Below, in pieces: positions 35,303 through 39,545 of a stretch of DNA of 64,000 bases. Source of the stretch: Iphione sp. A-MEVVRFRX5 (Eukaryota); contig OZ320315.1 in NCBI GenBank assembly GCA_976226885.1, forward strand, positions 41,044,001 through 41,108,000. The letters are read 5' to 3'. Below the pieces are notes generated by a model. The model was not told where the DNA came from. It saw nothing but the letters and a program-made list of their open reading frames with translations, and searched no databases. The stretch's first letter is position 1. Each line of letters opens with the position of its first letter. The translations under genes and the position numbers were made by a program.

Positions 35303-36698
35303 AGGCACGCGCGTACTCATTGTCGACCTGCTGCATCCCTGGTCCGTCCGTTGGTGTAACGAGTAGCTCCAAAGTGACCAAGCCACTTCGTCAGGGTTTG
35401 CTGTCCTCCTACAAGTCTTTCCCATCGCTGTCCGTCTACCTCGGGAGCAGGCTTGGTGTCCTCACATCAATGGAGCAGTGCCGCCCCTCTGTCTGGCCGA
35501 GTGATTACCCCTTCCTGGAGGCTGCGGGGAGAATGGATGCGCATGGTGGAGGGCTGGCTTTGATGGAGAGGGGCTGTCGTGGCTAGATGTAGAGACGCCT
35601 GCATTACATGTTGAACACTGACAGGCTCTACTCGGTTATGTCTTGTTTATGTCTGTCACTGTCTTCATGGTTCCTCTCTTAGTCTTAGTCTCCCATCACT
35701 TTGATATCACATAGGGTTGTCCTCTGTCTGGCTGTCTTCTCTGGTGTCTCCTCATTTGCCGTGCTGTTCTCTCTCTGTGTCCTCTGTTTCCTGTCTGCTT
35801 GCATGTAAACATATCTTTTTTACCAAGAGGTTTTATTACAAACCGTTAGGTGCTTCCCTATGTTACACCTTAGGCGGTTAATAACATCATGTGGTAACAT
35901 CAACGCCGCCAGAAATCATGAACCGGGAAAAAACAGCACTCAGCGCCGATATGAAATGACATATTTAAGACGATTCCGCAGTATTTGATTACTTTCCTTA
36001 TCGAGTGCGCCTTCTGTGCCTATCGAATTGAAGTGTGTGACCTTGCTTTCAAATTACTGTTTTCTACGAAATGTGTAATAGGCTGACGCTGTAGCACAAA
36101 GCAAATCAGATTTTGCTAGAGGATGATGCACGCCAGCAGACTGAATTTATAAAGAGTTGCGTGTCCTGAGTGTGACCCAGTTTGTATTCTATTACAGAGC
36201 TCTTCATGTAATGTTCATAATGGCAAAACGCGCGTCATTATAAAGTGATGAATGGAATATGCCAACTGCACGTATATATGCGGACTCGGGCACTATTTTT
36301 CATTAAGTATAGAATCACTGCTGTGTCTGCTAGGGATGTAAATGCTCACTGTGACGAAAATGTTTTTTTCCTTTTCGTTAGGTGCGATTCCCATGTTGTG
36401 TCAGACCCCTGTAAATGTTCAGAATGCAATTGTTGAAGTGGTGTTTCCATGCCTCAGACCTCTTGTGTGGCATCAGTGANNNNNNNNNNNNNNNNNNNNN
36501 NNNNNNNNNNNNNNNNNNNNNNNNNNNNNNNNNNNNNNNNNNNNNNNNNNNNNNNNNNNNNNNNNNNNNNNNNNNNNNNNNNNNNNNNNNNNNNNNNNNN
36601 NNNNNNNNNNNNNNNNNNNNNNNNNNNNNNNNNNNNNNNNNNNNNNNNNNNNNNNNNNNNNNNNNNNNNNNNNNNNNNNNNNNNNNNNNNNNNNNNNN

Positions 36699-36940
36699 GT
36701 GAGTATATGAGAGAGTGTGTTGTGTGTGAACATGTATGTGTATGAGTAAGTGTGGGGGTTGTGTACATGTACGTTTGTGATGTGTGGGTGGTTGAGCTTG
36801 AGTGTGTTGTGTGTATGAGAGTGTTGTGTGTCGGTGTGTATGTGTGCCTGTATGTGTATGAGTATGTTGTGTGGTAGTGTGAGTGTGTTGTGTGCGAGTA
36901 TTTTTGTGTTGTATGCCAAAATATATAAAATGTGTGTGTT
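36699..36940. repeat. Degenerate (GT)-rich low-complexity tract
   Basis: gtgtgt/gtatgagt-type units next to an N gap. Confidence 0.85.
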
Positions 36941-37211
36941 CGCATAATAATAATGGTCTGACAAACTGATGGTCTGATGGCCTAATGAAAAACGGGACTC
37001 AGACGGGTGTGCTCTCAGGCCAGTCAGTCACAGTCTGATGCTGGATTGGATTTTGCAAACATGAAAGTAGTAACTAATAAACACCTGTTGACAAATTGGT
37101 CTGATTTGCAGATAGATACATGGAAAGAGCCCCTTACAGTTACATGTAGTAAATACAGTGCACATCCCAACATGCTGTGCCTAATGGTGTGTTAATTCTT
37201 TGTCTCTGCAG

Positions 37212-37377
37212 TGAACATTCCATCGTGGCGGCCCGGGCGTCGGTCATGGTCTATGACGATGGCAACAAGAAGTGGGTGCCAAGTGGCTCGTCCCAGGGAC
37301 TCTCCAAGGTGCACATCTACCACCACTCGGTCAACAATACCTTCAGAGTGGTAGGCCGCAAGCTGCAAGACCACGAG
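37212..37377 (+). CDS. ena: Ena/VASP-family protein, EVH1 domain exon (N-terminal half)
   Basis: Acceptor tgtctctgcag|, then T+[55 protein letters not shown], donor GAG|GTGAGT. 166 nt, phase 2 to 0. Very close to Drosophila Ena and human ENAH EVH1, including the ligand-binding Tyr and Trp. Confidence 0.97.
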
Positions 37378-37624
37378 GTGAGTGACGGTCCGAGAGAGGA
37401 ACTGGCATCCTCCTCTGGGCAAGCATGGTTCACTTTATGGACACTTTTGGGTCAGTCCCTTTGCTGTCCGTAGTAGAGAGGTTCCATTGTATTAGGAAGG
37501 GGACGGGTGCTACCAAGCAACTGGCGAGAGGGTCCCTGGGTTCGTTGGGCTTTCTGTGGTACAAAGCAAATATAACAGGTCTTGTTAGAAAAGACTACCG
37601 AACTGACAATGGGGTCGTAATCCT

Positions 37625-38845
37625 CTAGATTGATTTCCCTTTTCCATGCTTCCGGATAGCTGTAATGTGAGCCTGTCCCCTATGCAGGGTGTGTCCATCC
37701 CAATCCCAATTCCTCATCTGAATACTATTGGTGATTGGGTCTTGTTTCATCCTGCACATGAGTTCTTCATTTGAGATTCGTTCTGGGCATCTGACGTGCA
37801 GGAAAGACAAGTATTGATGAAAACTGTGACATCCAACAGGATCCTTCTCCAGCAGCAAGAGATTGTTAGGTGATCGATCTGGTTTTCTAGGTTTACGAAA
37901 TCAAAACCAACACACTCTTTCCAGAACTGTCTTGTATTTGTCAAACAACATCCACTCATACATCCAAGCTTTCGGGAGGAGATCCTCCCTTTGTCAGGGC
38001 TCAGGTAGTTGTGCCATAGTTGTGATCTGGTTTTCTTCTGTGTGGGAGGATGGTTCCACCAATAACAAGGTTGTTTTGCTTGCAGAAGTCTGTAAGGAGC
38101 TCTCCATTCTCTTTTATATTCTGGAGGCCATGTCTTCCCATGATTAGCTCTCTCCCTGTGTTGTCACTCCCCACTTTGCCATTCAGGTCACCCACCACAT
38201 TTGTGATATCTCTTTTTGGTGTATTGTCCAACACATCTTGGAGCTGCTCACAGAACTTCTCCTTTGCTTCTTTTTCCATAACATTGATAGGTGCATAGCA
38301 CTAGATAATTGTTCCTTTCAGGAACTTTGAGAGAAAGCAGGCTGTTAGGATCTGTTCACTGACAGGTTCCCATTCAATTAGATTCCTACTTGCTCTTCTT
38401 GTCATCATAAGTCCAACCCTCTTGACATGGTCATGGTCTTCATTTGATGGTCCTGAGTACAGGAGCATATGTCCTGATGATAGTGTCACTTGTTCATTCT
38501 TTGTCCATTGCATTTCACTGAGTCTCAATATCTCCAATCTATATCTCTCCATTTCCCTAGCCACTTAGGCAAATTTCCCTGTTTCATATGTTGTTCTCAT
38601 ATTCCACAATCCAGTCCGTGTGACGGTCTAGGGGAACAGAAGATTCTGTAGCTCAGCTCCACACTGGGATTGGCTGGTCCACTTCAGACACTCTCCCCCT
38701 GGTCATTTCTTTTGGTCCTTTGATGTTGGTCTTGCAGTGTTGGTTTCTGTAGCTGTGGCTTTTTTATGGGGTGGGGACCCTAGACCCATGCCCAACCCTC
38801 CTCCTTTTGCAATTGGGCTTGGGACGGGCTTTGGCAGAGTTGGAC
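37625..38845 (-). mobile_element. Decayed, internally deleted RTE-clade non-LTR retrotransposon (5' UTR, AP endonuclease, C-terminal tail; RT missing)
   Basis: Minus-strand translation gives GLWNMRTTYETGKFA*VAREMERYRLEILRLSEMQW ... *CYAPINV ... VVGDLNGKVG ... ENGELLTDFCKQNNLVIGGT ... ENQIDHL ... WRRILLDV (APE endonuclease). This joins VFINTCL ... PERISNEEL ... GHTL (RTE ORF C-terminus). RTE-type 5' UTR motif CCCGTCCCAAGCCC...GGAGGAGGGTTGGGCATGGG...CCCCACCCCATAAAAA. Stops and frameshifts present. Boundaries approximate. Confidence 0.9.
37876..38036 (-). mobile_element. 135-bp insertion flanked by 13-bp direct repeats, carrying a degenerate minimal hammerhead ribozyme (Penelope/retrozyme-like)
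   Basis: GATCTGGTTTTCT at 37876-37888 and 38024-38036. Minus strand inside: CTGACAA-A-GGGAGG-ATCT-CCTCCC-GAAA-GC-TT-GG (37997-37964). Confidence 0.6.
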
Positions 38846-39545
38846 CTATAATAGTATTGTTATAAAGTGATAGGGAGGTCTTTGAGGTGTCTCCTTGGTA
38901 CAAGAGAGACACAACAAGTATTGGTATAAAAGACTGCACAATCGACAGAAGGGTCTCAGGACCTTGTGTGGTGTGCAAGGTACTGGTGTCGAGCACCACA
39001 CAGCTGACAAGAGGATCTCTGGGTGTTTAGAGCTGTTGCGAGCTGTTCATGGGGTGCAGGTGAAGTTTAATGGGAAGTAGTGTCAGGGACTTTTTGACTA
39101 CCGGTTCCACATATATTGATGCCAGTTCCTGGAACGCAAGTACTATTTGGTACCACCAACTCTAGTGTAATTTACTGAGGAGTCATAGAACTGAAAGCAG
39201 TGCTAGTAACACAGGCGGTATTCTTTTATCGGTAGCTGTGATCATGGCGGTGGACTTGGTCTGTGTCTCCTCCCCCGAGAGTATTTCAACGATGGATCAT
39301 AGAAGCTTGCCTGCAATGAGGAGGGTGGGGAGAAAGTAAAGTGGACGTTGAAGTGATACTGACTGAAATCTAGGAAACTCTCGAGTATGCGAGCTGCTAT
39401 CGGACTTGCGGTCAACGAATTTGCATAAACCACCACTCTCCAAAAGCCCTTTTCAATGCTGCCATGAAGAACTTGCAGCCACAAACCATGCAACTTAGTT
39501 GCGAGAGAAGAGTCCATGATGGGTTAATTATAATGCTTTAGTTCG

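Follow-up and report, generated by a model that had tools for sequence, protein, structure and literature searches.

Minimal hammerhead ribozymes (min-HHR) have been reported from the pseudo-LTRs (pLTRs) of metazoan Penelope-like elements (PLEs) by Cervera and De la Pena (2014; PMC4209133); in the part of that paper considered here, most genomic motifs were single, few lay in full elements, and the ends of the single copies were not mapped. According to the portions used of the respective papers, a CX2-5CxxC linker before the endonuclease (EN) marks the Neptune/Nematis elements (Craig et al. 2021; PMC8557442), a short ORF1 is present in a killifish Neptune (PMC12602865), rotifer PLEs have TATA and initiator motifs in their pLTRs, solo pLTRs and target-site duplications (TSDs) of 8-10 bp (PMC3846280), and the promoter of Drosophila Penelope is internal and TATA-less (PMC2377424). 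For an anole element, Frangieh et al. (2024; PMC11167929) showed that the RT begins copying at an internal point of the RNA, depends on sequence downstream of that point and uses unprocessed RNA.

The locus described here lies in a 64-kb window, i.e. the whole stretch of DNA that was analysed. A 135-bp insert with a hammerhead-like motif, nested in a LINE, was confirmed as the preliminary description had reported it (Table 1). As judged from its sequence, the insert is the 3' tip of the pLTR of an endonuclease-bearing (GIY-YIG) Penelope-like element, because it is identical in kind to the tips of full-length RT-GIY-YIG elements found elsewhere in the genome.

Insertion site and host LINE

The insert is flanked by two copies of the 13-mer AGAAAACCAGATC (minus strand), which is absent elsewhere in the 64-kb window, and just one more non-simple exact 13-mer repeat spaced 100-200 bp apart was found there. 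Retrotransposition with a duplication is supported, as first proposed, but the 13-bp TSD is less clean than that description had it, since 41 bp are missing from the window LINE copy directly beside the upstream repeat (38036-38037), joined over AGA. Because this AGA microhomology overlaps the upstream repeat, 10 of its 13 bases are unambiguous and the duplication length is 10-13 bp. The 41-bp segment was kept in all 29 LINE relatives examined (29/29). No second genomic copy of the deletion junction was found with ≤1 mismatch, which makes it unique to the window locus; a LINE subfamily already carrying the deletion was rejected, as the junction occurs once in the genome. Since the deletion adjoins the duplication, the junction may be a repair product and not a textbook TSD.

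The host LINE, which we take from its motifs to be RTE-like, has a relative (L033) with one long ORF containing Exo_endo_phos and RVT_1. CpG o/e was 0.22 in the host LINE region vs 0.72 for the window. The LINE and its insert lie antisense to the host gene, in the intron between two WH1/EVH1 exons (Pfam E 5e-11 and 6e-19, consecutive profile parts), so that the hammerhead motif is absent from the strand of the host pre-mRNA.

Two further observations were made on the LINE. Past its endonuclease fragment, at 37640-37823, the alignment to the fetched relatives ends with an apparent jump, judged by eye, to a later part, which reads as an internal LINE deletion. LINE 5' ends can carry ribozymes, and the host LINE 5' region gave a weak twister-P1 match (38792-38843, minus, 18.3 bits, E 2.1, far under the gathering score); this stretch is conserved in L033 and is probably due to chance.

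Table 1. Positions of the features at the window locus and of two further loci of the family.
Feature	Position	Strand	Remarks
135-bp insert	37889..38023	minus	between two exact 13-bp repeats in the LINE
Family-aligned part of insert	37889-38013	minus	125/135 bp; 3' tip of Penelope-like pLTR
10-nt junction addition	38014..38023	minus	ACAACTA plus TGG; between TSD and start of family homology
TSD, downstream copy	37876..37888	minus	LINE codons of ENQI; begins 77 nt past cut site
TSD, upstream copy	38024..38036	minus	first 3 nt AGA also microhomology of 41-bp deletion
Minimal type I hammerhead	37964..37999	minus	from sequence, family alignment and pair counts
Hammerhead stem I, CC/GG	CC at 37998-37999	minus	from sequence
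Hammerhead core, C3-A9	37997-37991	minus	G8A at 37992; extra A at 37990
Hammerhead stem II	37989-37974	minus	GAAAGCUU at 37973-37966
Predicted cut	between 37966 and 37965	minus	
Decayed host LINE, APE endonuclease region	37824..38841	minus	RTE-like, presumed; ~84% identity to intact genomic relatives
Host gene exon, WH1/EVH1 domain	37216..37380	plus	Pfam WH1
Next WH1 exon of host gene	~40765-40911		Pfam WH1
L095	G000:C1:19803800-19810300	minus	young full-length copy
L148	G000:C1:112700307-112700402		61-bp tandem duplication, natural hammerhead dimer, joined over GGTA overlap

Hammerhead motif and parent Penelope-like element

The motif reads CUGACAA-A-GGGAGG-AUCU-CCUCCC-GAAAGCUU-GG at 37964-37997. 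A loose pattern of it matched once in the window and never in 100 shuffles, a lenient control because the pattern was written from the motif itself. A scan of 36500-39500 against Rfam (E≤10) returned no hammerhead family. Folding of the insert showed no extra stability against shuffles (z -0.66), and stem II was the sole ribozyme helix formed in the minimum-energy fold. The intact CUGANGA / GAAA-UH core is missing from the window copy, which carries G8A, and is present in the family.

Comparison of the insert with the genome yielded 133 candidates; 40 were scored, of which 39 were other loci matching it with 80-89% identity, and L004 and L003 were closest to the window copy (85% identity). A genome-wide family, for which the preliminary description had suggested a search, was found, and the core CUGANGA is present in 22/28 distinct BLAST-selected relatives. 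Over 113 ends the core read CUGAAGA in 83, CUGAUGA in 12, CUGACGA in 6 and CUGACAA in 2, with 10 other or unmatched, and these counts are inflated by the hammerhead pattern used for selection; the palindromic stem III GAAAGCTTGG occurred in 106/113 ends, a partly pattern-selected figure. Stem II was paired in 95.9% of cells for 44/52 distinct rows, the omission of the others (L012, L016, L030, L071, L078, L107, L111 and L113, mostly indels or damage) favouring pairing. Two-sided changes occurred at 2 pairs (GC to AU, AU to UA), each of them one inherited event. The stem II covariation score exceeded all 500 shuffles and all slid controls; the number of two-sided pairs was not exceptional, as it was reached by 102/500 shuffles. 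Overall, the features of a minimal Penelope-type hammerhead, as the motif had been classed, were recovered in the family: an extra base after A9, the palindromic stem III and stem II.

The earlier suggestion that G8 became A by CpG decay of CUGACGA is the simplest one and is likely, as CUGACGA is read by the closest relative of the window copy and by one subfamily, L029 carries G8A likewise, CpG-type changes were seen at the C11.1-G12 dinucleotide in 5/28 relatives and the host region is depleted in CpG. It is not proven, because L011 shows G8A without a CpG. The change is predicted to have probably killed the ribozyme of the window copy. Inspection by eye for an extended stem I showed a third pair that can form in part of the subfamilies but not in the rest, that of the window copy being among the latter. 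Upstream of the core, CCCTAACCCT is telomeric-repeat-like in some subfamilies and variable in others.

Exact patterns gave at least 47 matches genome-wide for the 3' part of the insert and at least 74 for the hammerhead, both lower bounds, and 0 in reversed controls. The insert sequence forms the terminal part of the pLTRs in full-length elements. The 135-bp length first given for the insert was correct, but only 125 bp belong to the family; the remaining 10 nt were added at the junction and repeat the bases with which the element itself begins. Comparable additions were found in other short copies (L030, L149, L150, L156 and L167), that of L156 being a 28-nt re-copy of the element start.

Hit pairs on the same strand and 4.3-4.4 kb apart numbered 21 (9 + 12). 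In each of the fetched pairs (8/8) the two copies stand in direct orientation, measure 126-434 bp and are 98-100% identical, and these pLTR pairs flank an RT-GIY-YIG ORF that is intact in several. The GIY-YIG Penelope partner proposed as a check was therefore found: in L095, two 429-bp pLTRs that are 100% identical, with a 13-bp TSD, enclose a 795-aa ORF with RVT_1 (46.2 bits) and GIY-YIG (23.7 bits), both above the Pfam cut-offs. GIY-YIG is C-terminal to the RT within one ORF, the hammerhead motif is located in the pLTR, and the RT-EN linker reads CNKPRCRTC (CX4CxxC) in L095 and L173. The DKG motif (SADKGG) was also seen. L004/L063, to which the window copy is most closely related, runs upstream into GIY-YIG sequence 58% identical to that of L095.

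In several subfamilies, intact copies contain three ORFs and not one. The first (220-235 aa) overlaps the start of the RT ORF and stops on its IVVNLS codons; splicing or frameshifting could join these two. The third (337-364 aa) carries C2H2 fingers, lies downstream and ends inside the pLTR. All three are under purifying selection, dN being far smaller than dS over four pairwise comparisons; for the third ORF, dS had reached saturation between distant copies. Young full-length copies with identical or nearly identical pLTRs and three intact ORFs are L095, L098, L099, L101, L170, L173 and L174. In another copy (L061:6345-7325), a 1-kb unrelated insertion with short tandem repeats at its end splits the 5' pLTR just upstream of the hammerhead.

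Element ends and origin of the stub

End positions were counted from the predicted hammerhead cut site. The 5' homology limits fell at -62 to -33 in 42/114 de-duplicated ends. An exact TSD of 9-14 bp, the duplication whose presence in relatives was to be checked, was found in 29 of these 42 short ends including the window copy (13 bp in 10), with its onset at +71 to +87; the other 13/42 had no exact TSD of ≥9 bp. The 3' ends of the family are thus fixed ~77 nt past the cut site. A second set was chosen by the 3' motif only, so that its 5' ends were unselected; its 47 matches represent 38 loci, which gave 32 ends after omission of five long copies and one segmental duplicate, three full-length starts being entered by hand. 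The 5' ends of these 32 fell at -62 to -33 in 14 and at -360 to -330 in another 14 (binomial P ~3e-9 per cluster vs uniform, with bins drawn after seeing the data), and 0/32 lay within 10 nt of the cut site.

Of 66 ends in which the motif TATA[AT]AA was detected, 62 have its first base at -78/-79, ~30 nt ahead of the short cluster, which is centred at about -47. A transcription start near -47 is suggested by this TATA motif and the junction positions. In full-length and solo copies, the 5' pLTR begins at a fixed point, near -345 in one subfamily group and near -220 in another. This second cluster has no recognised promoter; it might mark a second transcription start, and a TATA-less internal promoter, by analogy with Drosophila Penelope, could explain it. 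In addition, a 14-base non-coding motif at ~+83 to +107 is conserved across subfamilies (17 ends, all 5' pLTRs) and is a candidate protein-binding site for internal priming. Its position past the 5' pLTR end matches the need for downstream RNA reported in PMC11167929.

The best explanation as a whole, held with good confidence, is that the window copy is a pLTR end which the element's own RT wrote into an old LINE from RNA that the ribozyme had not cut, leaving a stub that would be a dead-end product and not a self-propagating family. The GIY-YIG domain would nick the target with a stagger of ~13 bp, and reverse transcription would begin inside the RNA ~77 nt past the cut site, as measured in the anole element. 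The cDNA would then run off at the 5' end of the TATA-driven transcript near -47 and be joined to the target, at the window locus with the re-copied 10-nt addition, and the CpG change of G8 to A would have come later. The cut site lies unbroken within the insert, which extends 48 nt upstream of it, so the template RNA was probably uncut.

What the ordinary 5' truncation of a long transcript would change is the origin of the 5' end, the identity of the stub as a Penelope pLTR being the same: priming would occur at the 3' pLTR and the RT would stall soon after the hammerhead, with the -47 cluster produced by structure or microhomology. Near -47, cDNAs could indeed be halted or joined by the ribozyme stem or by a favoured microhomology; there are long truncated copies whose ends are scattered (L085, L008, L027, L151 and L158), and the part of PMC4209133 considered gives truncated PLEs as the source of single minimal hammerheads. 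However, subfamilies separated by a dS of 1 or more between their RT ORFs share the pile-up of ends within ~20 nt at TATA+30, and the full-length copy L101 begins at the same place, -47. Truncation is the main rival, but is considered an unlikely source of these ends. The preliminary description had read the insert as a monomeric, ribozyme-processed RNA, possibly of an undescribed retrozyme-like family. As a non-autonomous, retrozyme- or SINE-like mini-element, a unit of 125-135 nt would be transcribed, self-cleaved, perhaps circularised and moved by the Penelope protein. Many near unit-length copies with TSDs are found, animal retrozymes derive from pLTRs according to part of a preprint (bioRxiv 10.64898/2026.07.22.740005), and L148 is a tandem hammerhead dimer. 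However, this 61-bp duplication is the sole match pair <4 kb apart and could be a seed of such an array; no head-to-tail arrays of the unit, which were to be looked for, occur among the 47 and 74 exact-pattern matches, a search that divergent arrays could escape. The short copies also lack the TATA box and follow the sequence of the long copies of their own subfamily, and the retrozymes treated in part of PMC7229834 are described as 150-450 bp units repeated in tandem, those of coral and axolotl carrying canonical type I hammerheads. With no starts at the cut site and no arrays, a ribozyme-cut monomer is not supported; the sequence belongs to the terminal pLTR part of autonomous elements, and a separate mini-element is considered improbable.

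It was also considered whether the motif is chance LINE sequence (CCT GAC AAA, the codons of S-P-D-K) combined with a local rearrangement. S-P-D codons are expected near this point and those 41 bp are absent from the window copy, but at that place the LINE family has TCCCCAGATTCA, which differs from the insert and rules out CUGACAA as the LINE's own codons, and 125 bp of the insert align to a dispersed family distinct from the LINE. The probability left to this explanation is negligible.

The reading of the stub as a pLTR end copied from uncut RNA may tentatively be taken further. The short copies would be strong-stop-like cDNAs primed only in the 5' pLTR, which has the conserved motif downstream of it, full-length insertion would need strand transfer, and the two fixed 5' ends would mark two transcript classes. 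In full, the RT would run to the capped RNA start and a retrovirus-like transfer to the 3' pLTR would follow, in this three-ORF lineage. If true, genomic junctions would map in vivo pLTR regeneration without ribozyme cleavage.

Comparison with known systems

The window locus is a dead stub and has little weight by itself. The family includes Penelope-like copies that are young and intact and whose ends are sharp and can be counted; it is usable test material, and could serve for testing the role of the hammerhead in transposition and pLTR rebuilding. A search of published articles returned no description of a PLE with a C2H2 second ORF or of the 5'-end clustering; the family may already be catalogued.

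The parent element resembles Neptune/Nematis, as given in the part of PMC8557442 used, in its RT followed by a C-terminal GIY-YIG, its CX2-5CxxC linker and its flanking pLTRs, a clade likeness that rests on motifs, of which the linker does not separate Neptune from Nematis. Unlike the canonical PLEs of those pages, it has the extra upstream ORF and the extra downstream C2H2 ORF, and these two depart from the one-ORF textbook PLE.

Like non-LTR retrozymes, as far as the cited portions describe them, the insert is short, non-coding and pLTR-related, with a type I hammerhead and a TSD of >4 bp. It differs from them in having no tandem arrays, a minimal hammerhead and colinearity with an autonomous pLTR.

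Poseidon of Anolis carolinensis (PMC11167929) likewise has the 3' end of the insert inside the transcript, downstream of the hammerhead, and does not need ribozyme cleavage for insertion; AT-rich targets are common to both (here judged by eye). The end map of the family agrees with the in vitro internal priming on uncut RNA. Unlike Poseidon, the window family has one 3' end, no clear 30-40 bp tail or inverted pLTR was seen in it, and its hammerhead lies upstream of the ORFs, whereas that of Poseidon overlaps the start codon.

Finally, the hammerhead corresponds to the min-HHR, as presented in the part of PMC4209133 considered, in its CUGANGA core, the unpaired base between 9 and 10.1, G10.1-C11.1, the long stem II, the palindromic 15.2-16.2 and the short helix I. 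The window copy differs in its family and host and in G8A. pLTR stubs with a minimal hammerhead are known as a kind of object, and the insert is another example of them.
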